Counted from the first letter of the stretch, positions 1,526 through 60,962 are shown. The stretch is DNA of 64,000 nucleotides from Minisyncoccia bacterium (GCA_049997875.1 JBEKRC010000003.1:18725-82724), one strand, 5' to 3'. The notes: generated from the sequence alone by a model not told the origin. Program-made: numbers and translations.

Positions 1526-1993
1526 TTATTGTTGCGACGCGGTGAATTTCCATTCAATGCGGTCGCCCGCATGCACCGCGGTGTGATCGGCGCCCTCCGT
1601 GGCATACACGCCGTTCACCCAGTACTGCCAGTACGCGCCGCCTGCACCATTAATTTTATCACCAATTTCCGTGATGAGAATCCCCGTGCCTGGATAGGCC
1701 TTGTAATTAAAGGCAAGTCCGGCATTCGCGGCGGCCGTCTGGACCACCAAAAAAACGGTGGAGGTGGCGGCCACAGGAACGGCGCCATTCACAATATTTT
1801 TCGTACCGTCAAAGACAACAAGCGTTGCGGAAGCGACCGGCAAGAGAGCTGGCGCGGACGCGGACGATGACGGAACTTCGGCGGGGACCGCCATGGGCGC
1901 CACTCCCGGTGCCGATGAAAAGGAATGCCATCCTGCCCAACCGGCGAGTGCTGCCGCAACCACAATGCACGCAATAATAAAAAATCTTTTCAT
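1526..1993 (-). CDS. DUF4430-family secreted protein (transcobalamin-like fold family)
   Basis: Signal-peptide-like N-terminus MKRFFIIACIVVAAALAGW. C-terminal GAYWQYWVNG...DRIEWKF motif region is typical of DUF4430. Its ATG overlaps the upstream gene's stop (ATGA at 1990-1993). Confidence 0.6.
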   Translation of the reverse strand: MKRFFIIACIVVAAALAGWAGWHSFSSAPGVAPMAVPAEVPSSSASAPALLPVASATLVVFDGTKNIVNGAVPVAATSTVFLVVQTAAANAGLAFNYKAYPGTGILITEIGDKINGAGGAYWQYWVNGVYATEGADHTAVHAGDRIEWKFTASQQ

Positions 1994-3528
1994 TGGCTCT
2001 TGCAAAGATTATTCAGAACTGCACGGGTTGTGGCGCCCACATAGCCGTTGCCGGACGAAAGCCCGTTCGGCGCAAGGATCTGATCGGCAAAAATATTCTG
2101 AAAAGCGATAATCGCATTTTTGGTTCCATTGCCAAAATAGGCGGTCTCGTTGCCTGGCGAGCCGGGACCGTCCTTTGCCACCTCCGTAAGCGAGGTATAG
2201 TTGAGAACTCTTTGGAGAGTCTCCACATCGGGATCGTTCATTCCTTGATGTAGGTTTTTATTGAACGCAGCCGTGCAATCGTTCCCCTTGAACTCCAGTG
2301 TGACCAATTCTTTTTCCAAATCAATGATCTCGGTAATCACGCTTGTCGTTGACGCACCGAGAACCACTCCTCGTATTGGCGTGAGGGTACTCGTAGCTGT
2401 GTTCTCTGCTGCCGATGGTGATGGAGGCAAACTGCTTCCTCCATTGCTCCCTCCACCACCACCGCTACCACCCCCTCCCCCGTTCCCTCCTCCCACTAGC
2501 ACGACGACCCCCGTTGAGGTCGCCGTGGTGCTCGTAGCCGCCATACCGGAGACCGGCGTAATCACGGCGGTCGGCAAAAACTTCCCAAGGAGAGCGATCA
2601 CGGCGTATGCGGTCGTCACCGGACTGAACGAATCCTCGCCGCTCCCCGACTGATATTCAAAAAATCCGGAAGTGGCGTTCTGCAACGAAAGCAAACTCGC
2701 CACGGGATCGGTGCCGCTCGCCGCGGTCCAGGCGGACGACGTCGGACGTTGCCCAAGCGCATTGATCGCTGAAATGATCCACGAATCGGATGAGGCATCC
2801 GTAGACGTCCCGTAGGGGCTCGCGGGATCATACGAAAACCCGCCATCGGGGTTTTGGGCGCTCTTCAAATATTTGACGGCATTCTGAATGGCAGGGTCGG
2901 AAACGTTTGACCCGGTCGCAAGGAGTGCCATGACGGCGGCTGCAGTTGTATTCGTATCGCTCGTTCCGCCGATGGCATACGCGAAGCCGCCGTCCACGGC
3001 GTTTTGGTTATTCAACAAGAAACCTCGCGCGCCCGAGACCGTCGGATCGTTTGACGACACTCCCGCCGCACGCAACGCGAGCAATCCGAAAATGTCGTCG
3101 TTGAGCGTAGCGGTGCCCCCGATCTCGCCGGTCGTCGTACTCACAAAACTTTCAAGGCCTGCAACGAGGTCTTCGCCACCGATAAATGTGCGCGGATCGC
3201 TGCCGATCGCCGCGATCGCCATGATCGGCGCCTCAAGAGCGATCGCCGTAGAGGTGCTCGTACCCGCGAGCGCAAGCGACACGGAAGAAGTGCTCGGCGT
3301 GTTACCCGCTAGAGAAAGCGCCATGATGCTCCACGGACTAAGCAGCTTGGATTGCAAATAAGAAACAGCGGCGGCGATCGCCGAGGCAACGTCCGGCGTC
3401 GTGGAAGCGGTAGTGGAAACGGTGGAGGTGGCAATGGTGGAGCTCGCGTCTGCAAACGAATGCGAAGGCCGTGCCATAAACATTGCAACGGCAACCGAGA
3501 GAACGACGAATAAAAAAGTTTTTTTCAT
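1990..3528 (-). CDS. secreted prenyltransferase/squalene-oxidase-repeat protein with Gly-rich linker and C-terminal peptidoglycan-binding (PG_binding_1-like) domain
   Basis: Signal peptide MKKTFLFVVLSVAVAMF. Repeated ...DGGFAY/ DGGFSYD... terpenoid-cyclase-like repeats. Poly-G/S linker GGGNGGGGGSGGGGGSNGG. C-terminal ...LQRVLN...GNGTKNAIIAFQ... PG-binding-like motif. Confidence 0.6.
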   Translation of the reverse strand: MKKTFLFVVLSVAVAMFMARPSHSFADASSTIATSTVSTTASTTPDVASAIAAAVSYLQSKLLSPWSIMALSLAGNTPSTSSVSLALAGTSTSTAIALEAPIMAIAAIGSDPRTFIGGEDLVAGLESFVSTTTGEIGGTATLNDDIFGLLALRAAGVSSNDPTVSGARGFLLNNQNAVDGGFAYAIGGTSDTNTTAAAVMALLATGSNVSDPAIQNAVKYLKSAQNPDGGFSYDPASPYGTSTDASSDSWIISAINALGQRPTSSAWTAASGTDPVASLLSLQNATSGFFEYQSGSGEDSFSPVTTAYAVIALLGKFLPTAVITPVSGMAATSTTATSTGVVVLVGGGNGGGGGSGGGGGSNGGSSLPPSPSAAENTATSTLTPIRGVVLGASTTSVITEIIDLEKELVTLEFKGNDCTAAFNKNLHQGMNDPDVETLQRVLNYTSLTEVAKDGPGSPGNETAYFGNGTKNAIIAFQNIFADQILAPNGLSSGNGYVGATTRAVLNNLCKSQ

Positions 3529-3841
3529 GAAACGAAAAATCCCGCAACGAGCGGGACGACAGGCGACAATGCAGCACCTCCATCGTCCCTTAGCTCGAGG
3601 AACCTGGTTTATTTTTATTTATCGGAAATGGTAACCGGACTTTCCGCGGCTCCGCGGATCACCGTAGCGGCACTGTGCGGGATTCCCACCCGCTTCCCCA
3701 TTCCCGATAAGGACCTAATGACCTCTAAATTTTCAACGATGCTTTTCCAGTGTAAGAACCAACCCCAACACGCGTCAAGGGCTCTTCTGTGGATAACTCT
3801 CGCCCGCCAAACCCACGGCATAATCATGCATAATGACGCGT

Positions 3842-5079: not shown

Positions 5080-6246
5080 ATGCCCCCGGAAAAAAGATCT
5101 GTCATTTCCCGCGCGCGGAGCTGGTATGCGCGCTTTGAGCGGCCGATCTCATCGCTGTCGCTTGTCGGCGGTTTCGTATTTGACGCAATCACCCTGCGGC
5201 GCGTGGACGTGTGGCTGGATAATTTCTGGGTCATCGCACACCTTACGATCGTCACGATCTGCGCCGTCTGGATCAATCTCTTGGACAATACCGCAAGCGA
5301 AACCGGCGTGCGACCGGAAGCGGACCCTCACCGGCTCCACTTTTGGCTCGTGAACGTCATGCAATTCTTTTTCGGCGGCATTCTGTCCGTCTATCTTGTC
5401 TTTTATTTCCGAAGCGGCACGTTTGCGACGAGCTGGCCGTTCCTTTTGATCCTCGCCCTCGCGTTTATTGCAAATGAATCCCTGAAACGCCATTTCGCGC
5501 GACTCTCGTTCCAGATAGCGCTCCTATTCCTCGCGTTTTATTCCTTCGCCATCTACCTCATGCCGATCCTGCTCCATGAGATCAGCATGCGAGTATTCCT
5601 ATTGAGCGGCATAGTGAGCGTGGGCGCAATCGGCGTGCTCCTTTTTGTCCTTGCCCATTTCTCGCGCGAGCGGTTCCGGGGGCGGAGCGGTTGGGCAGTG
5701 CTCTTTTCCATCGTGGGCATACTCATCATCGTGAACGGCCTCTATTTTTTGAACCTGATCCCGCCGCTTCCCTTGTCACTTAAAGACGCCGACGTGTATC
5801 ACGCGCTCGTTGCAAACGGCCCCGGCAATTACACGGTGACCGACGAACACCAACCTACGACCGGCCTCGCGTCCGTGGATTTCCTCACGCGCTTTTTCGC
5901 CTTGAGCCAAACCGTCCACATCGTACGGGGCGATTCACTCACGGCCTACACCGCCGTCTTTTCTCCTACGGCACTGAACACGAACGTCGTCCATGAATGG
6001 CAGTACTACGACGCGGCGGCGGGCACGTGGGTCACGCGCGGCCGCATTTTGCTTTCCGTTGTCGGCGGTCGCGACGGCGGCTACCGCACCTTTTCCGAAG
6101 AACCCGCGATCACCAAGGGCCCTTGGCGCGTAAACGTGGAATCCCCGACCGGCCAGGTTATCGGACGCCTGAACTTTGACGTTGTCGTGCAAAACGCGGA
6201 ACCCGCGCTCGTCGCAGAAACGATCGGCGGAACAACAATGAATTGA
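5080..6246 (+). CDS. membrane protein with N-terminal polytopic region and C-terminal soluble domain (unknown function)
   Basis: 388-aa ORF. About 7 hydrophobic helices in the first 260 aa, then a hydrophilic C-terminal domain. No recognisable catalytic motif. Confidence 0.5.
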   Translation: MPPEKRSVISRARSWYARFERPISSLSLVGGFVFDAITLRRVDVWLDNFWVIAHLTIVTICAVWINLLDNTASETGVRPEADPHRLHFWLVNVMQFFFGGILSVYLVFYFRSGTFATSWPFLLILALAFIANESLKRHFARLSFQIALLFLAFYSFAIYLMPILLHEISMRVFLLSGIVSVGAIGVLLFVLAHFSRERFRGRSGWAVLFSIVGILIIVNGLYFLNLIPPLPLSLKDADVYHALVANGPGNYTVTDEHQPTTGLASVDFLTRFFALSQTVHIVRGDSLTAYTAVFSPTALNTNVVHEWQYYDAAAGTWVTRGRILLSVVGGRDGGYRTFSEEPAITKGPWRVNVESPTGQVIGRLNFDVVVQNAEPALVAETIGGTTMN

Positions 6247-7321: not shown

Positions 7322-7361
7322 TGTCCGCGCGAGCCCGCCCGTGCTATACTCTCCGTACCGA

Positions 7362-7775
7362 ATGACGGAAGAACAAGAACGGCAAACGAAGCGGGTGAGG
7401 CGGGCGACGTGGATTTTTATTGCGATCGCCGCCGCGCTCTCCGTTTTCCTCTATCTGAAAAACCTGCCGCCGCCGAACGGCACGTATGACGCCTTCGCGA
7501 AATGCATCGCGAGCACGACAACGAAATTCTACGGCGCGTTTTGGTGCTCCCACTGCGAGGATCAAAAGCGCGAATTCGGCAATGCCGCCCAATATCTCCC
7601 TTATATAGAATGTTCAACGCCAGATGGGTCGGGAGAAACGAAAGCGTGCCAAGACGCGGGCATCACGGAATATCCGACGTGGTATTTCCCCGACGGCTCA
7701 AGCTCCACGGGCGTTCAATCGCCGCAGATGCTTTCCCAAAAAACCGGTTGTCCCCTATCCATGTCCACGCCGTAG
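7362..7775 (+). CDS. membrane-anchored thioredoxin-fold thiol-disulfide oxidoreductase (DsbA/BdbD-like, CxxC = WCSHC)
   Basis: Start trimmed to the ATG (MTEEQ). N-terminal TM anchor, then FYGAFWCSHCEDQKREF thioredoxin-like active site. Lies immediately upstream of the DsbB-like gene. Confidence 0.6.
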   Translation: MTEEQERQTKRVRRATWIFIAIAAALSVFLYLKNLPPPNGTYDAFAKCIASTTTKFYGAFWCSHCEDQKREFGNAAQYLPYIECSTPDGSGETKACQDAGITEYPTWYFPDGSSSTGVQSPQMLSQKTGCPLSMSTP

Positions 7776-11869: not shown

Positions 11870-12319
11870 TTACTGGCCCGACGGGGCGACGCCACTCCCG
11901 CCGCCATTGCTGCTCCCGGGGCCGGGCGCATTGCCTCCGCGCACCTGGATGGTCTGCGCCGTCACGCTTCCGTCGGAATTCTGTGTCCCTCCGATGATCA
12001 CGCTCGTCCCTGGCGTAAGGTCGCTGACCGACGCCGCTGACGGCTTGATAACCGACGTGGAACTGGAATAGAACACAACCTCCGAATTGCCGTTCGCAAG
12101 CTGTACCGTCAGGCTTTGCGCGTCCTTGGAAATGATACTGCCAGTCACAAATCCGCCGCCGCTCCCCGTGCGACCGGTCCCGCTACGCGTTGAGCTCGCA
12201 AAGGCGCCGCGCCCCGCAAACGAAGGGGAAGCTGTCGCCTTTCCATAATACATGCCGCCAACGAATGCCACGATCGCGACGACAAACCAGACGATATGCA
12301 CGATATATTTTTTCACCAT
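11870..12319 (-). CDS. small N-terminally membrane-anchored protein (DUF5666-like), paralog of 16353-16835
   Basis: 149 aa. One TM helix, then a beta-rich domain ...SLTVQLANGNSEVVFYS...GTSVIIGGTQNSDGSVTAQTIQVR that aligns with the ORF at 16353-16835. Gly/Ser-rich C-terminus. Confidence 0.45.
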   Translation of the reverse strand: MVKKYIVHIVWFVVAIVAFVGGMYYGKATASPSFAGRGAFASSTRSGTGRTGSGGGFVTGSIISKDAQSLTVQLANGNSEVVFYSSSTSVIKPSAASVSDLTPGTSVIIGGTQNSDGSVTAQTIQVRGGNAPGPGSSNGGGSGVAPSGQ

Positions 12320-12351
12320 TTTTTAATAATTGCATTTATAAACGACCTTTT

Positions 12352-12505
12352 GCGCTTCTGACGAAGCTATCTCTTACGAGGGCATCTCGGAGCCGCAACG
12401 GCTTGAGGCAACCTTTAGGTTGCCTGTTGCGGCGAGAGCGAGGCGCATTTCCCCGCTGGAGGAAATGACGCCGTCCCTCGTAAGAGATAGCTTTGTCAGA
12501 AGCGC
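12352..12505 (+). repeat. structured inverted-repeat element, copy 1 (31-bp outer stem enclosing a conserved core of about 90 nt)
   Basis: Arms 12352-12382 and 12475-12505 are reverse complements with one G:T position. The core is shared with 18900-19039 (inverted) and 54206-54351. Confidence 0.7.
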
Positions 12506-12510
12506 ATTTA

Positions 12511-13752
12511 TCATTCGTATCGCAACGCTTCAATGGGACTCAACCCTGCCGCGCGACGCGCGGGATAATAGCCAAAAATGATGCCGATGGCCGCGGAAAC
12601 GCCGAACGCAAGGATGATGGAACTCAGTGACACGCTGGTCGCAATGGACGTGAAATACGTGACCAAGAACGCGATCAGCCATCCAAGAATGATCCCAACT
12701 ATCCCGCCGACAAAGGTCAACATGACGGATTCGGCGAGAAACTGCAGCGTGATATCCTTCTTCTTTGCGCCAATCGCTTTGCGCAGGCCGATCTCGCGCG
12801 TGCGCTCGGTGACCGTTGTGAGCATCATGTTCATGATGCCGATGCCGCCGACGAGGAGCGAGATGCCCGCAATCGCGGCGAGAAGCGTCGTGAAGGTGCC
12901 CGTCACCGAAGACGCCGCCGCCACGATATCTGCCTGGTTCAGGACGTTGAAATCAGCGAGGGTCGGATCGGAAATATTATGCCGCTGCAACAATAAACTT
13001 GTAATGTCGTTCTGCACCTGCGTCATAGCCGATTGATCGGTCGCCTCCACGTCGATCTCGGTCACATACGAAGTGCTCCCCAAGAGAAAATGCTGTGCGG
13101 CCGTGAGCGGCACATAGATCATATTGTCCTGGTTATTGAACCCGCTGCCGCCTTTTGATACCGTGACGCCCACCACTTTGAAATCAATGTTTTTGATGCG
13201 AATGGTCTGTCCGATCGCCATGTCGGGCGTCGCCGTTGCGTTCGCGCTCCCGAAAAGATCCTGTAGTACCGTGGGGCCGATCACCGCCACGCGGTTTGAG
13301 ACGGCGACGTCCGCATCGGTGACGAACACGCCCTGAGCCACCTGGACGTTCCGCACCTGCGTATACGCGGCGACGGCGCCGAGCACGCTCGTATTGGTGT
13401 TCGTGCCTTTGTAAAGCACCTGGTACCGCCCGCTTACCTCGGGCGAAACCGCCGCGACGCCTGAAAGCCGTCCGATAGCGGTCGCATCGTCGGGCGTAAG
13501 CGTTTCCGCGCTTCCGCGCCCCGCGCTTACCGTGGACCCGATGGACCGCTGCGCGCCGGGCATGACGAGCAACAAGTTGGAACCGATGGATTGGATGCTT
13601 GATTGGATGGAACTCTGCGCTCCCTGTCCGATTGCCTGCAAGGCGATCACGGACGCAATGCCGATTACGATGCCGAGCATCGTAAGCCCCGACCGCACTT
13701 TGTTTACGGTCACGGCGCCATATGTTTCTTCAAAAAGATCTTGCGTGGTCAT
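12511..13752 (-). CDS. ABC transporter permease, MacB/FtsX family
   Basis: 413 aa. N-terminal TM helix, large periplasmic domain, C-terminal FtsX-type 3 TM helices. Confidence 0.8.
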   Translation of the reverse strand: MTTQDLFEETYGAVTVNKVRSGLTMLGIVIGIASVIALQAIGQGAQSSIQSSIQSIGSNLLLVMPGAQRSIGSTVSAGRGSAETLTPDDATAIGRLSGVAAVSPEVSGRYQVLYKGTNTNTSVLGAVAAYTQVRNVQVAQGVFVTDADVAVSNRVAVIGPTVLQDLFGSANATATPDMAIGQTIRIKNIDFKVVGVTVSKGGSGFNNQDNMIYVPLTAAQHFLLGSTSYVTEIDVEATDQSAMTQVQNDITSLLLQRHNISDPTLADFNVLNQADIVAAASSVTGTFTTLLAAIAGISLLVGGIGIMNMMLTTVTERTREIGLRKAIGAKKKDITLQFLAESVMLTFVGGIVGIILGWLIAFLVTYFTSIATSVSLSSIILAFGVSAAIGIIFGYYPARRAAGLSPIEALRYE

Positions 13753-14492: not shown

Positions 14493-16333
14493 CTTCCGGT
14501 AGTGCCGCCGGCCGCACCGCCGCCGGTCGTAATGCGGGCACCGCCGCCGCCAAGAAGCCCGCCGCCAAGGCTGCGCAATACACTCGTACCGCCGGTGGAT
14601 GCCGCCGCACTCGCCGCCGTCGTCTGCAGCGTTTGCACAATGATCTGGTCGCCCTCGTTCACCCCGGAAGTGATCTCCGTGAGCGTGTCATCGGAAAGCC
14701 CGGTCGTGACTGGCACGCGCTTTACGGCGGGCAATTCCACGCCGCCCGAGATACTCGCCGCAAGCGTGGAGCTTGAAACCGGCGTCGCGGGCTCCGATAC
14801 GTAGCTCGTCGTCCCCTGCGCCGTGACCGCCGCGTTCGGCACCGCGATGACGTTCTCGCGTACCTGCGTCACAATGTCCGCCGTCACGCTCATCCCAGGT
14901 CTCACCTGGGTTGTTCCCGACGCCTCTGTAAATGCAACTTGTACATTGTAGTTCACGACGCCCTGACTTACCGTCCCCACCGCGTCTATTTCCGACACCG
15001 TGCCCGCAAGCGAAAGGTCGGGAAGGGCATCAAAGGTAAGCGTCGCTTTGTTGCCGAGCGCCACCTTCGCCGCATCTACTTCGTTCAGAGTCACCTCGGC
15101 AAGATCCCCTTGCGTCACCATGCTCACAGCGGGCGACGGCACTGTTGTCCCCACGACGGCAGGAGTGGCGGAGATCACCCCGCCGATCGGCGCGCGGATG
15201 GAACAATACGCGAGGTTCTGCTCCGCGGTCGCAAGCGCATTTTGCGCGCTCTGGATGCTGATCTGTTGGGAAAGAAGGTTAAGCTGTGTCGGGCCCGCGA
15301 CCAATTCCGCGAGCGTCTCGCTCGCCTGCTCAAGCGAAAGCTGGTTGTTCTCAAGGGTATCCTTGTCGTTCGCAATGCCCACGATAACGTTCTCTACGCT
15401 TGAGACGTTGTTGTTGACCGTGCTGATGTCGTTGCCGAAGGTCGTCTGGAACGTGGTCGTGATCGTGGGGAGCGGGGCAAGCCGGTTGTCCTTCGGATAA
15501 TTGTTCACTATGTAGTTTAGGAAATCATTAATCGTCTTCACGCTTGCGCTCACGAGCTGCGTCGTGTGATAAGTCTCCGAAAACAGCGCGTCAAGCGTGG
15601 TGCGGTCCGAACTCCGTGTGGCGGTATGATAGTCGGCCAGGTTTTGCTGGTACGCGGCGAGGGCGGCGCTGTAGCTCGGCGCGACCGCGTCGCCGTACGA
15701 CTGCGCGCTCACCTGAAGATAGGTCGGCATAATGCTTACGTACGCATCGGCATTTTGCTGGTTCTTGTTGATATTGTTCCCAGTCGCGAAGTTGCCTACA
15801 TCCGTAATGACGCTCTGGAGGTTCACGAACACGGACGAGAGCGTGTCAAAGCCGTTCTCATAATCCGAAACAAGCGTCGTAGAAGCATCAAGGGCGCTTT
15901 GCTGCCCTTTTATCACCGCGCTCTGGTCCTGGAGCAAGGTGGTCGTGGATATCTGCTGCAGCTCTGCAAGGGAAAGCTCGGCCGACTGGAGCGACAATTG
16001 CGCCTGATTCACCGCCTTTTGCTCGTTGGTCGTATCCAGCTGCACGAGGAGCTGCCCGGCCGTCACGTGGTCACCCACGCCCACGTACACCTTCGTCACA
16101 TTTTCGGAAACCTGCGGCTTAATGTCTATGGACGTCACCGCCTGAACCTGCCCGCTTCCCGTGACCGAAGAAACGACCGTCCCCTGCGCCGCATTCTCTA
16201 TGACATACTTGGTCACCGTCACCGTGCCCCGCGAGGAAGAATACCAGTAATAGGCGCCGCCAACCACAAGAATCACCACGATGGCGGAGATCACCTTATG
16301 CGCGTATATGCGTTCTCGTAATTTCTTGAACAT
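14489..16333 (-). CDS. periplasmic adaptor (HlyD/membrane-fusion-protein-like) subunit of the ABC efflux system, with Gly-rich C-terminal tail
   Basis: 614 aa. N-terminal TM anchor, long coiled-coil-like Q/A/L-rich central region, beta-barrel-like C-terminal region, then a GGGLLGGGGARITTGGGAAGG tail. Confidence 0.6.
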   Translation of the reverse strand: MFKKLRERIYAHKVISAIVVILVVGGAYYWYSSSRGTVTVTKYVIENAAQGTVVSSVTGSGQVQAVTSIDIKPQVSENVTKVYVGVGDHVTAGQLLVQLDTTNEQKAVNQAQLSLQSAELSLAELQQISTTTLLQDQSAVIKGQQSALDASTTLVSDYENGFDTLSSVFVNLQSVITDVGNFATGNNINKNQQNADAYVSIMPTYLQVSAQSYGDAVAPSYSAALAAYQQNLADYHTATRSSDRTTLDALFSETYHTTQLVSASVKTINDFLNYIVNNYPKDNRLAPLPTITTTFQTTFGNDISTVNNNVSSVENVIVGIANDKDTLENNQLSLEQASETLAELVAGPTQLNLLSQQISIQSAQNALATAEQNLAYCSIRAPIGGVISATPAVVGTTVPSPAVSMVTQGDLAEVTLNEVDAAKVALGNKATLTFDALPDLSLAGTVSEIDAVGTVSQGVVNYNVQVAFTEASGTTQVRPGMSVTADIVTQVRENVIAVPNAAVTAQGTTSYVSEPATPVSSSTLAASISGGVELPAVKRVPVTTGLSDDTLTEITSGVNEGDQIIVQTLQTTAASAAASTGGTSVLRSLGGGLLGGGGARITTGGGAAGGTTGR

Positions 16334-17936: not shown

Positions 17937-18497
17937 CTAATTCTCGCGCGCATAAAGCCCGACGAGCTCCGTCTCCGCAAGAAGATGCCTGCTCGTTGCT
18001 GCTTCAAGTTCCGCCTTGCCGGAAGTACTTGCAAGGTGAAGCACGGCATCCAGCGCGTAAAGATGAAACTCGTAATGGTGCGTCCCCGATGGCGGGCAGG
18101 GACCGACATACCCCGCGCGCCCCGCGTCGTTTCTTCCCCCCACGCTTCCTGGAGGCACCCCATTCTCCGCAATGGCCGTCGTCGCAGGATTGATGTTCCA
18201 AACAACCCAATGGGTAAATCCACCCGCGCGCGGCGCATCCGGGTCGTGCATGATAAGCGCCAGACTTTTCGCGTCCGTGGGCACTCCTTCGATTCGCAAC
18301 TCCGGACTCGTGCCGCTCCCGTCGCATGTGAACTTCGCGGGAATCATCCCGCCGTTTTCAAATGATGGACTGGCAATAATCATCGTAGTTATTTTCGGTT
18401 CTCTTGACCCTTGCCGCGACAATGCCCAAAGCGCTACCGCGCCGAGTGCCGCAAACAAGATCACCGCAATTATAATGTTTTTTCTCACGCGCATCAA
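17937..18497 (-). CDS. PEBP/YbhB/YbcL-family (Raf-kinase-inhibitor-like) protein with signal peptide
   Basis: Motifs ...LALIMHDPDAP... and ...YVGPCPPSGTHHYEFHLYALD... characteristic of bacterial PEBP proteins. Confidence 0.7.
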   Translation of the reverse strand: MMRVRKNIIIAVILFAALGAVALWALSRQGSREPKITTMIIASPSFENGGMIPAKFTCDGSGTSPELRIEGVPTDAKSLALIMHDPDAPRAGGFTHWVVWNINPATTAIAENGVPPGSVGGRNDAGRAGYVGPCPPSGTHHYEFHLYALDAVLHLASTSGKAELEAATSRHLLAETELVGLYAREN

Positions 18498-41889: not shown

Positions 41890-42330
41890 ATTCTTGTTTT
41901 TGAGCCGCACGTTGAAAGCCCACTCCACTGCTTGAGTGAACGGAGAACAGAAAGAAATTAGAACGGCCGCTCCACCCAATTCTCAAAGAGTTTTACGAAC
42001 CACGCGCCGCGAGGGGTGCGCTTCCTGCTTTAAAGAACTGGGTGGAGCGGCTGTGGTGACCTCCAATTCTTTTTGTGGTTGAATGAGTGCTCTCCAGCCG
42101 GCTCCGCTATCAGTATAGAATATGCACATTAAAAAACAATAAAACCGGCCTTTAAAACCAAAAGTCCCCTTGCGGGGGCTCCTGGCCAAAAAGAATTGTG
42201 TGGGATTTTCCTCAGTCGACGTCGTCGTTAAGGAAAACTCGCACCCATTCACTGGCATTATAGCAGATACCCGGAGAAAACGCAAGCCCCAGCCGTACGT
42301 TCGGTTGCCGAACTGCGGCTGGACAATGCC

Positions 42331-45661: not shown

Positions 45662-46018
45662 GTTTTTATTTTAACATAACCTAAAATGTGGCGTTTCAAA
45701 CGCGTTCTGCTTACCTCCAAATGAACCGCCATCGGGATTTTCACGTCGCTCGCCGCTAAGACCGGCTCGCTCCCCGGAAACCTCTCGGTTTCCGGCACCT
45801 TCCTCCACGGGGAAACTACCGTTTCCCCGACCCCCTTCCCGGTTCAAATCCCTCCATAACAAATACAAGCAATGTGATGTGCTCTTTTGAGAGGATCTCG
45901 GAGGCGATTCGCGCTTGGTATCCGCCGAAGGCGGATGCGAATCGCCGAGAGCCAGCGGGCGTGCGCCGCAGGAGCGCGCGAACCGCGTCTCTCAAAAAAG
46001 CACATCACATTGCTCGTA

Positions 46019-46092
46019 CCGCCATCGGGATTTGAACCCGAGTTTTCGCCGTGAGAGGGCGACGTCCTAAGCCAAGCTAGACGATGGCGGCA
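46019..46092 (-). tRNA. tRNA-Glu (anticodon CUC)
   Basis: Hand-folded cloverleaf: acceptor GCCGCCA/TGGCGGT, D arm GTCTAGCTTGGCTTAGGAC, anticodon loop CTCTCAC, T arm GGG-TTCAAAT-CCC. CCA is not encoded. Confidence 0.8.
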
Positions 46093-50304: not shown

Positions 50305-50362
50305 GGGTGAACTTCCATTTCGCCTCCTGCGAAGACGAAGTCGACAAAATGGAAGTTCACCC
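50305..50362. terminator. 16-bp hairpin downstream of rplL (possible terminator or processing signal before tRNA-Val)
   Basis: GGGTGAACTTCCATTT ... AAATGGAAGTTCACCC with a 26-nt internal loop. No T-run follows on the minus strand. Confidence 0.35.
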
Positions 50363-54144: not shown

Positions 54145-54205
54145 GATTTTTTACAACCTACCTATATTATAAGACCTAAATGATTCTGTAAATAAGGTAG
54201 CGGGT

Positions 54206-54351
54206 CGTTTCGCTAGATTCACCTTTATGGAGCATCCCGGAGCCACGGCGGCCTGAAGCAACCTTTCGGTTGCTTGCCGTGGCGAGGGCGAGCGGCGTTT
54301 CCCCGCCGGAGGAAACGACCGCGTCTCCATAAAGGTAAATCTGGCGAAACG
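54206..54351 (+). repeat. structured inverted-repeat element, copy 3
   Basis: 27-bp outer arms CGTTTCGCTAGATTCACCTTTATGGAG / CTCCATAAAGGTAAATCTGGCGAAACG (one G:U, one mismatch) enclosing the conserved core. Located between tRNA-Thr and dnaE. Confidence 0.7.
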
Positions 54352-54453
54352 ATTGCTATCTTTTTAATCAATTTTTTAGTATCATATAAGGGAAATTAAA
54401 TATTTATCTAATGTTCTGCATCCTCGCTTGCGAGGGCAACATAAAGAACAATT

Positions 54454-59545: not shown

Positions 59546-60503
59546 TACTTTTTAAAACTTTTTAACCATTCACGTGGAATGATAGGTAATTCAATGGCAA
59601 AGAAAAACATTTTCTCAGCGTCTACGCTAAAAAACCCTCCAATAAAAGAAGGGTTCCTTAGCATGCCTGCTGTCAACAATATAACATCGACAGGGACAAC
59701 CGCCCCGCAGGCATAGTTTCATATTAGGACGCCATATCCTAAAGTCAAATACCTTTTAAGAATTTTTTAATGAAAGTCAAGCGCACGGGCCTGGACGATC
59801 TTCGAACAGCGCTAACTATGCATAAATAAAAAAGCCGTCCTCCTAGGATAGCTCGAATACTGTGGGGAGAGGGAGGAACAAGGTCTCGCCATATTCCGCC
59901 CTCTCCTTCCACGTCGCCTTCAAGGGTCAAAAAACCCTAGGGCGTCGTAATCTGGTGGACCCCTCAGCCGGGCTCGTTGGCCATTGGGTCCGCATCACCG
60001 TTGTTGGACGCAGTCACGCCGCTGGTCGCCCGTTTCGATATAGTGTGGGCCAGCGTGGTATGAGTCATATTGGCATTCATATGGGGTAAGTCCTCCAAGA
60101 TAAGTGTAGTGTACCGCAGCGCGCGGACATACTACTGAGATTATCCGGACGCTAGATCTAATATAGCATATCCGGGAGCTTGTTGCGATTGCCCCGCCGC
60201 CAACTGACTTAGATTACCCCCCCACCGCTTATAGATTCCTGTGTTCGAAATCAACGGGATCCTCTGTCCTGGAAGCCTTGATTTTGCTCAATCGTGCGCG
60301 GGCCTGGATTCGAACCATAATCAAAAAGTATATAGCTGCCTGCCCGCCTTTTGCGAACCGTGCGGAGGCTGAGTTAAAAATCCGCGAGCGAACAGGAAAT
60401 CCGCCGGGTGCCCCCGCCGAAGGCGAGAGGGCGGCGGATTTCCGTCCATGAGCGGGCCGGATTTTTGCGAGGCCGGAGAGGGTTCACAAAGGCAGGCAGG
60501 CAG

Positions 60504-60962
60504 CTATTCTATCTTCACGATTTCATACGTCGCCGCCCCTGCCGGCGTCGCAACCTCCACCGTCTCCCCCGCTTTCTTCCTCAAAAACGCCTTGCCGAGC
60601 GGCGATTCGTCGGAGATGCGGCCTTCCTCCGGCTTCGCCTCATACGATCCGACAATCGTGTACGCCACCGTTTTTTCCCCCCGCCGAGCCGTTACCGTGG
60701 AACCCACAACCACGGTGTCGCTCCCTTCCGTTTTTTTAATTGTCACCGCCTGCTTCAAAAGGTCCTCAAGCTCGGCAATCCGCGTTTCCACGTTCGCCTG
60801 CTCCTCGCGCGCTTCGGCATACTCCGAATTCTCGGAAAGGTCGCCGTATTCCTTCGCCTGTTTCAAACGTTCGGCCACCTCCACCCGCTTTTTGTTCTTG
60901 AGCGTTTCCAATTCTTCCTTGAACTCCTCAAGCCGCTCTTTCGTAAGATATTGTTTTGCCAT
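60504..60962 (-). CDS. greA: transcription elongation factor GreA
   Basis: 152 aa. N-terminal coiled coil with conserved acidic tip and C-terminal FKBP-like domain (…YTIVGSYEAKPEEGRIS…PLGKAFLRKKAGE…). Confidence 0.85.
   Translation of the reverse strand: MAKQYLTKERLEEFKEELETLKNKKRVEVAERLKQAKEYGDLSENSEYAEAREEQANVETRIAELEDLLKQAVTIKKTEGSDTVVVGSTVTARRGEKTVAYTIVGSYEAKPEEGRISDESPLGKAFLRKKAGETVEVATPAGAATYEIVKIE

Follow-up and report, generated by a model that had tools for sequence, protein, structure and literature searches.

The window, by which we mean the whole 64,000-nt stretch of DNA that was analysed, carries four copies of a hairpin element. The copies belong to a hitherto undescribed family of hairpins of approximately 120 to 170 nt in tiny-genome Patescibacteria. 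We read the element as a non-autonomous, structure-constrained mobile DNA hairpin specific to Paceibacteria/Minisyncoccia (Patescibacteria, CPR), with a probability of about 0.6. Patescibacteria have genomes of approximately 1 Mb and are thought to carry little repetitive DNA. The DnaE protein of the window is annotated as Minisyncoccia/Paceibacterota, and the genomes nearest to the window are closed contigs of 0.89 to 0.91 Mb.

Three of the four copies had been reported in the first-pass annotation. These were confirmed as described (arms of 25 to 32 nt, centres of 92 nt and cores that align); the number was too low, since a fourth copy at 45864-46018 (plus strand) had been missed. The copies and the parts of copy 1 are as follows, with positions counted from the first letter of the window.

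12351-12506, plus strand: copy 1, long type, whole hairpin (inverted-repeat search; covariance-model matches of 128.8 and 103 bits), between the stop of a MacB-like permease gene (12511-13752, minus strand) and the start of a DUF5666 gene (11870-12319, minus strand).
12351-12382, plus strand: copy 1, 5' arm of the outer stem P1; the proximal 12 to 14 nt or so fit the family pattern YTYTTNNRRGRG.
12386-12438, plus strand: copy 1, P2 arm (MFE fold and pair counts).
12386-12388 and 12436-12438: copy 1, P2a, CTC/GAG, with the internal loop GGA/GA and with P2b, GCCGCAAC/GTTGCGGC.
12400-12405: copy 1, bulge GGCTTG.
12406-12425: copy 1, P3 hairpin.
12442-12472, plus strand: copy 1, P4 (GGCG/CGCC) and P5 hairpin, with the conserved loop CCGCTGGAG at 12453-12461.
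12475-12506, plus strand: copy 1, 3' arm of P1, ending 4 nt short of the stop codon of the MacB-like gene.
18899-19040, minus strand: copy 2, long type (inverted-repeat search and covariance model), between a STAS gene (19183-19536, minus strand) and a gene of 120 aa (18494-18856, minus strand), with a T-rich tract after the element.
45864-46018, plus strand: copy 4, divergent long type (inverted-repeat search; covariance model, 107 bits), adjoining the 3' end of tRNA-Glu (46016-46091, minus strand).
54205-54352, plus strand: copy 3, long type (inverted-repeat search and covariance model), between the divergent tRNA-Thr and dnaE promoters.

In the inverted-repeat search, the arms were 32 nt and 97% complementary in copy 1 (12351-12382/12475-12506), 25 nt and 96% complementary in copy 2 (18899-18923/19016-19040), and 28 nt and 93% complementary in copy 3 (54205-54232/54325-54352). 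The centre between the arms is 92 nt in each of these three copies, and the centres align well. Copy 4 has 30-nt arms and a 95-nt centre. All of its inner helices differ in sequence yet remain complementary, a compensatory replacement, and it keeps the unpaired motifs CTCGGAG, GCTTG, CGAGAG, CCGCAGGAG and CGTC. The pairing-preserving changes listed beforehand for copies 1 to 3, GCAAC/GTTGC versus CACGGC/GCCGTG in one helix and CATTTCC/GGAAATG, CATTTTC/GAAAATG and CGTTTCC/GGAAACG in helix 2, are correct in the sequence. The fold of each of copies 1 to 3 is a three-way junction closed by a single long stem, with z-scores of -9.9 to -12.5 relative to dinucleotide shuffles.

The core word GCAACCTTNNGGTTGC was found in the window only at the loci of copies 1 to 3 (0.6 matches expected), and a pattern built from the unpaired motifs matched exactly the four copies (0 expected by chance). 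The covariance model scored the four at 107 to 129 bits and gave no other match in the window. Their cores differ by approximately 15%; orthologues of copy 3 differ at about 4 of 92 core positions (hand count). The arms of the four have no common word of at least 12 nt, and only the proximal 12 nt or so are loosely patterned. Flanks are likewise unrelated, which argues against a simple recent duplication with identical flanks, and orientation relative to genes varies as had been noted.

Across the family, an outer stem of 14 to 34 bp (25 to 32 bp in the window copies) closes a three-way junction of approximately 60 to 110 nt. The conserved unpaired motifs are CUCGGAG, the GGCUUG bulge, CGAGAG, the CCGCNGGAG loop and CGU, and the junction strands read (N3)CUCGGA / GAGAG-NNA / GU. 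One arm of the junction comprises P2a, the GGA/GA internal loop and P2b; the other comprises P4-P5. A mini type has this junction with P2 reading GCCGC-GAAG-GCGGC and a small loop at the end of P5. The long type adds the GGCUUG(G) bulge, a variable P3 hairpin and the CCGCNGGAG loop on the P4-P5 arm.

The covariance-model search proposed in the first-pass annotation was carried out on 1.22 Mb of related Paceibacteria (CPR) DNA, made up of 80 metagenome DnaE neighbourhoods (1.04 Mb) and other loci. The second-round model found 31 copies. A pattern scan of a genome collection returned mostly chance matches in high-G+C actinobacteria together with four true copies, two in OY970175.1, one in a Candidatus Paceibacterota MAG and one in a Candidatus Liptonbacteria MAG, each with a long stem (18 to 29 bp) of its own sequence. 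One intergenic region in contig L251 holds two copies head to head, at 5577-5745 (minus strand) and 5763-5921 (plus strand), 17 nt apart.

The element matches no known family. A whole-window scan with Rfam 15 (4227 models) found only five tRNAs and an AdoCbl riboswitch, and nothing at the element copies. Sensitive Rfam scans of copy 1, copy 4, a mini copy and a type B hairpin (described below) gave only noise (best E-value 0.0015, 21.7 bits against a gathering threshold of 64), so no family was reached at either gathering or E-value thresholds. Phage and plasmid collections contained no match to the element. In IMG/VR, a broad junction pattern gave 83 matches, none with complementary helices in a simple helix check, and a mini-core pattern gave one match that lay inside a coding ORF, scored 10.9 bits with the model and was treated as chance. 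No CPR repeat or RNA of such a kind was found described in the literature.

Constraint on the hairpin structure, as first proposed, is borne out by overwhelming covariation in an alignment of 31 sequences. Standard pairs occupy 93.6% of cells, a value somewhat inflated because the alignment was fitted to the model, compared with 39 to 52% when the 3' partners were slid by 1 to 3 columns. Double-sided changes occur in 33 of the 35 model pairs, the covariation score is 0.666 (0.11 to 0.12 in the slid control), and none of 500 shuffles reached the observed values of pairing or covariation. An independent MAFFT/RNAalifold alignment of eight copies gave double changes in 27 of 37 pairs. Even the three-pair helix P2a covaries (CUC/GAG, CCC/GGG, AUC/GAU and CGC/GCG). 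The GGA/GA loop between P2a and P2b, the junction GU and the loop motifs do not vary, and conservation of the purine-rich nucleotides at the junction extends from Paceibacterota to Liptonbacteria. The fold kept in this way is that of a single strand.

Close relatives differ in whether a given site holds a whole hairpin. The copy 1 site is empty in L302, L303 and L304, the three closest relatives (MacB 94, 93 and 92% identical). In these genomes the spacer between the MacB-like and DUF5666 genes is 33 to 42 nt and consists of the stop codon, 2 to 9 nt and then AAAGGTCG. The entire 156-nt hairpin is inserted in this spacer in the window, and its arms are not present in the empty sites. Copy 2 is absent from the same three genomes, which have an ordinary terminator hairpin and T tract at that position. 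Upstream of dnaE, the site is empty in L205 and filled by elements with unrelated arms in the window and L204 (which carries the orthologue of copy 3), L208, L216 and L220, and, in reverse orientation, in L215. The reversed copy has arms with no relation to those of L220, which rules out an in-place inversion.

A given hairpin can also be found, with its arms, at loci that are not homologous. The sister genome L306 (887,956 bp) carries a copy immediately beyond the 3' end of tRNA-Glu, the site of copy 4 in the window. The arms (AGGAATAACAA[A]T[G/A]CTCTTGAAAGGG) and core of this L306 element are those of window copy 2, and it shares with copy 2 the 5' flank GARAACAACA (10 of 12 nt of flank). 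Copy 2 itself sits at the STAS site, which is unrelated to the tRNA-Glu site and is empty in L306. Two paralogues in L208 likewise have arms whose similarity lies beyond that of 3000 shuffles. From the empty and filled sites and the recurrence of copy 2 in L306, the whole hairpin, including its arms, is therefore the moving unit. The arms had been described as entirely different in each copy; they are indeed unrelated among the four window copies, and they are not made anew at each insertion, as those of copy 2 recur in L306. The impression that each window copy is unique arises only because different subfamilies are represented.

The insertion polymorphism and the occurrence of one hairpin at two different loci agree with the earlier suggestion of a hairpin-forming mobile or REP-like element. 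Its companion prediction, many copies genome-wide, holds in a lineage-dependent way: four copies were found in the 64 kb of the window and no covariance-model match in the orthologous 63.7 kb of L302, L303 and L304. That one lineage has a copy every 16 kb, and its sister genomes have none in the orthologous regions analysed, implies recent activity. Sixteen contigs from the window's own population were 99.99 to 100% identical and hence uninformative on strain-level polymorphism. Genes for a transposase, recombinase or reverse transcriptase were found neither in the window nor beside any copy, where the neighbours are housekeeping genes only. In L215, at approximately 19700-19850 and downstream of the secY-site element, there is a second, partial half-element with an arm nearly identical to that of the L220 orthologue and with a repeat of the flank GGTGATT, which points to a duplication or to a new insertion next to an earlier copy.

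Changes in the stems are mirrored. Copy 2 and its L306 relative differ by one indel and several substitutions, each present in both arms. At the secY site, the distal arm in L220, L215 and L233 takes in the last 7 to 12 nt of secY, with an inverted copy in the far arm. This far-arm copy tracks the synonymous codons of each genome (GGCATAGAATAA/TTATTCTATGCC, GAATTGAATAA/TTATTCAATTC and CGAATAA/TTATTCG), and SecY has the C-terminus ...EYEGIE* in all genomes, whether or not the element is present. In copy 4, the TACG trailer of tRNA-Glu has been taken into the element in a similar way. Copies also decay: the orthologue of copy 3 in L204 has lost the complementarity of its left arm with 25 of 27 positions of the right arm conserved, one in L246 has a core deletion and uncompensated changes, and a type B copy in L204 lacks its right arm.

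Two other origins of the arms were considered. Inverted duplication of the local flank at insertion was rejected as the usual origin, since neither arm is present in the empty sites, and it accounts for no more than the outermost 7 to 12 nt at the secY and tRNA-Glu sites. Spacers or guides directed at phages or other loci were also rejected, there being no other match of at least 12 nt in the window or in 1.3 Mb of relatives. Three arm 20-mers gave 0, 1 and 0 matches in IMG/VR, the single 21-nt match being about what chance would give and lying in an ORF identified by eye as an HNH endonuclease. In L136, two convergent ORFs (heuristic calls) each run 19 nt into the arms of the element at 7327-7481. 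As the two ORFs read into the two arms, the arm sequences, as we read them, would give both the same terminal peptide, PQERS*. The palindrome is thus able to provide the end of a gene or to copy it.

Under the mobile-element reading, the junction with its invariant unpaired bases would be the recognition module for a hypothetical trans-acting enzyme encoded elsewhere in the genome. Recognition would probably take place on folded single-stranded DNA, by analogy with HUH/Y1 enzymes on IS200/IS605 ends and REPs. The hairpin may also template its own repair or replication (quasi-palindrome correction), such that a change in one arm would be copied to the other. Hairpin templating would explain why the stems are almost purely Watson-Crick and able to grow into flanking DNA. 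To judge from the mirroring and the decay, this correction and extension would act on DNA and would fail now and then. A more specific proposal is made tentatively: a mobilisation system not described before, working on single strands (DNA or RNA), could exist in CPR bacteria and have the element as its substrate. It would recognise a branched three-way junction rather than terminal repeats, hairpin-templated copying would perfect and lengthen the stems, even to the point of absorbing host gene ends, and the element might also act at the RNA level where genes end at their 3' side.

Insertion sites are concentrated directly behind stop codons or the 3' ends of tRNAs, or in spacers distal to promoters. 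Those used repeatedly follow closely on the stop codons of secY, greA, rplL and the MacB-like gene, or lie just after tRNA-Glu or upstream of dnaE. About ten copies start -19 to +26 nt from a stop codon or tRNA 3' end, and all of those abutting a stop codon are antisense to that gene, with orientation taken from heuristic ORF calls. With the sense strand opposite the genes, any co-transcribed RNA would be mostly the reverse complement of the strand first labelled 'sense'. In 24 of 29 copies, this purine-rich strand coincides with the local C-rich strand; the count takes in orthologous copies and so is not made of independent cases. The bias may be linked to replication or transcription. Insertion junctions were compared by eye and had no shared target word. 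Comparison of filled and empty sites allowed a duplication of 2 to 3 nt in an A run at the copy 1 site and gave none at the dnaE or secY sites. The repeated use of a few sites (the 3' ends of secY, greA and rplL, and the region upstream of dnaE) could reflect host function there rather than targeting.

Strand assignment was attempted through G:U versus A:C counts, and no asymmetry was found in arms, core or MFE folds. The outer stems of 29 copies contain 655 Watson-Crick, 25 G:U and 18 A:C pairs, the model pairs contain 37 G:U versus 26 A:C, and the MFE folds contain 60 G:U on the sense strand versus 48 on the antisense (p = 0.29). The first-pass annotation had held that the non-Watson-Crick positions are G:U-compatible on the sense strand. 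This applies to 3 of 4 such positions in copies 1 to 3, the other being an A:C in copy 3; both copy 4 mismatches are G:U on the opposite strand only, and the symmetry over all copies means that the rule does not generalise.

The sense strand folds 3.9 kcal/mol better as RNA on average (p = 6e-4), an advantage that we suspect to come largely from special hairpin-loop energy terms. Purines dominate among its invariant unpaired nucleotides, which may include a tandem G·A loop, and together these features have an RNA-like look. The best upstream -35/-10 matches are equal in both directions (7.6 vs 7.8 of 12), giving no dedicated promoter. T tracts are not enriched after the stems (mean T in the next 10 nt, 3.2 sense and 4.0 antisense), and a clear tract follows copy 2 only, so the family as a whole does not look like a set of Rho-independent terminators. 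The tRNA-Thr promoter, TTTACA-N15-TATAAT, is on the minus strand. Copy 3 and its orthologues lie between it and the dnaE promoter, upstream of both, and hence outside both transcription units. An RNA read from the 'sense' strand is disfavoured by the G:U/A:C symmetry, the lack of promoter or terminator signals in the flanks, the position of copy 3 between divergent promoters and the antisense placement next to abutting genes.

A cis-acting role in transcripts is the main rival explanation. It is compatible with a mobile element, and we rate it as rather unlikely. The hairpin would be part of the mRNA of the upstream gene, mostly as the reverse complement of 'sense', where the stem would serve as a 3'-end protector, RNase III processing site or factor-dependent terminator and the junction as a protein-binding site. 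Mobility would then be a secondary trait, or the repeat an exapted one, as argued for REPs. Such a role would suit the roughly ten copies that start so near a stop codon or tRNA 3' end and the reoccupation of the same sites in many genomes. Copy 2 lies exactly at the position of the intrinsic terminator of its relatives and keeps the downstream T tract, but most copies have no U tract in the direction of the gene. Stems of 14 to 34 bp are long enough for RNase III substrates. G:U is not favoured on the transcribed strand (about 8 vs 7, per-copy counts scored by hand). A cis-acting RNA is also hard to reconcile with the location of copy 3 and its orthologues upstream of both flanking promoters, with close relatives that have no element at the copy 1 site, and with the tolerance of decayed copies.

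A free-standing ncRNA or ribozyme is less likely than a cis-acting role, and we consider it distinctly improbable. Independently expressed, trans-acting small RNAs would be released from a long processing stem, and the junction would be a protein scaffold or a new ribozyme, for example. The strong covariation, the conservation of the purine-rich junction nucleotides from Paceibacterota to Liptonbacteria, the slightly better folding of the sense strand and an architecture like that of a type I hammerhead (open long stem and two hairpins) would all be expected of such RNAs. The hammerhead core (CUGANGA, GAAA) is absent, however, and no ribozyme model matches. Neither strand is enriched for promoter- or terminator-like sequences, G:U pairs are rare (approximately 4%) and no commoner than A:C, and the sense strand follows the C-rich strand in 24 of 29 copies and runs opposite the abutting gene in all of the ten or so stop-codon copies. 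Copy number also changes from 4 to 0 between near-identical gene neighbourhoods. Chance palindromes or unconstrained recent segmental duplications can be dismissed: apart from the near-perfect stems, which could reflect youth, nothing favours them, and against them stand z-scores of -10 to -12.5, unrelated flanks, 31 copies over several orders and 33 of 35 compensated pairs.

Two further long hairpins in the window occupy sites that the element uses in other genomes.

60332-60507, plus strand: type B, a related larger hairpin at the 3' end of greA, with 20-bp arms and a 136-nt centre (inverted-repeat search).
50305-50362: type C, a long hairpin with a 26-nt centre, just after the rplL stop and next to tRNA-Val.

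Type B has the frame GCGGAG...CGAGCG...AG-hairpin-CGT and CCCCCGCCGAAGGCGAGAGGG in common with the main family and is not detected by the covariance model. It occupies the greA site in the window, where L205 has a standard copy, and also occurs in L204 at 15784-15877 and 21098-21157, at greA and secY 3' sites that hold the standard element in other genomes. The centre of type C (CGACTTCGTCTTCGCAGGAGG, gene strand) is conserved in L306 (approximately 3395-3465) with completely different arms. At the same rplL site, L208 has a mini-type element and L204 a mere 5-bp hairpin. The relationship of type C to the element family is uncertain.

Several other structured regions were observed. Just upstream of the dnaE start, 54411-54441 (plus strand) contains ATGTTCTGCATCCTCGCTTGCGAGGGCAACA with the small hairpin CCTCGC-TT-GCGAGG. 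Of 19 related genomes that were compared, 15 have this motif almost unchanged; it has no Rfam match at the gathering threshold and is a candidate conserved 5'-leader element of dnaE. An AdoCbl (B12) riboswitch (RF01482, 68.8 bits), unrelated to the element, is located at 3575-3724 (minus strand) upstream of the gene at 1990-3528 (minus strand). An unusually long spacer of 402 nt between a GtrA-like gene and murB (41929-42330) contains several strong hairpins, among them a 21-nt inverted repeat with a 50-nt centre at 41963-42054 that the covariance model does not match; these may be another hairpin element or a leader. Between tRNA-Thr and dnaE in L218, L222, L246 and L269, approximately 150 to 250 nt upstream of dnaE, a conserved hairpin CGCCAGGTTG...CAACCTGGCG surrounds a CCGGA-AGGAAGGCA-like sequence and looks like the SRP (4.5S) RNA gene of these genomes. 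No SRP RNA was found in the window.

The family is worth modelling and masking: assemblies can break and gene callers go astray at its long perfect stems, and its covariation can be taken for the signature of a functional RNA. With arm changes mirrored and secY synonymous codons tracked, it also offers a natural system for the maintenance and extension of palindromes in vivo.

Among known systems, retron msr-msd requires an adjacent reverse-transcriptase gene and a branching G beside the a2 repeat, whereas no reverse-transcriptase gene lies next to any copy of the element. The type I hammerhead is similar in shape only: it too joins two capped hairpins and one open stem at a three-way junction, and it is often associated with repeats. 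Its core, CUGANGA...GAAA...UH, is absent from the junction of the element, and the Rfam hammerhead, twister, pistol and hatchet models gave no match. The integron attC site, like the element, is a site defined by folded single-strand structure rather than by sequence, such that its stems covary. The layout is opposite, however: attC conserves the outermost R''/R' boxes (RYYYAAC / GTTRRRY) and varies in the centre, whereas the element has variable ends and a conserved centre. attC also accompanies gene cassettes next to an integrase, which the element does not; no integrase lies beside any copy in the annotated neighbourhoods.

The bacterial MITEs (Correia/NEMIS, ERIC, RUP, BOX and Nezha), together with REP/REPIN elements, appear to be the nearest analogues. 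Like the element, MITEs are small, non-autonomous, fold-back intergenic repeats with presence/absence polymorphism. The same applies to the repetitive hairpin elements (RHE) of sponge mitochondria (PMC2800124). MITEs differ in having family-wide terminal inverted repeats, which were not seen here, and a fixed-length direct target duplication, of which no clear case was seen; the arm termini of the element differ between subfamilies, and its branched internal structure covaries.

REP/REPIN elements resemble it in being short, non-coding, hairpin-forming and extragenic, mostly just after genes, in occurring in both orientations with a bias, in copy number that varies between lineages, in the lack of a conspicuous target duplication and in possible secondary roles in mRNA stability. 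REP, BIME and REPIN sequences are mobilised by RAYT, an IS200/IS605-like Y1 HUH transposase. No RAYT gene was found in the window (64 kb of a genome of approximately 0.9 Mb) or in the annotated neighbourhoods. REP/REPINs conserve the stem (GTAG motif) and vary the loop, whereas the element conserves the three-way-junction centre and most of its stem differs between subfamilies.

The nearest mechanistic analogy would be with HUH/Y1 enzymes acting on folded single-stranded DNA (IS200/IS605 and REP/RAYT). In IS200/IS605, folded hairpins with specific unpaired single-stranded bases are recognised, insertion is seamless and without target duplication, and orientation is tied to the strand. Recognition of a hairpin and its unpaired bases, seamless insertion and a strand-bound orientation, as with IS200/IS605 ends and their ORF-less derivatives, the PATEs, may apply to the element as well. 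Several defining features were looked for and differ: those systems have two separate subterminal hairpins and no long terminal stem, whereas the element forms a single closed three-way junction; their insertions lie 3' of a fixed tetra- or pentanucleotide, whereas no shared junction word was seen by eye; and neither tnpA nor tnpB was found near any copy. With a conserved branched centre and variable, self-correcting stems, the layout of the element is the inverse of that of classical REPs and MITEs, which points to a novel mechanism of recognition and mobilisation. A system that recognises such a junction, if it exists as proposed, would be a new mechanistic class of prokaryotic mobile element.
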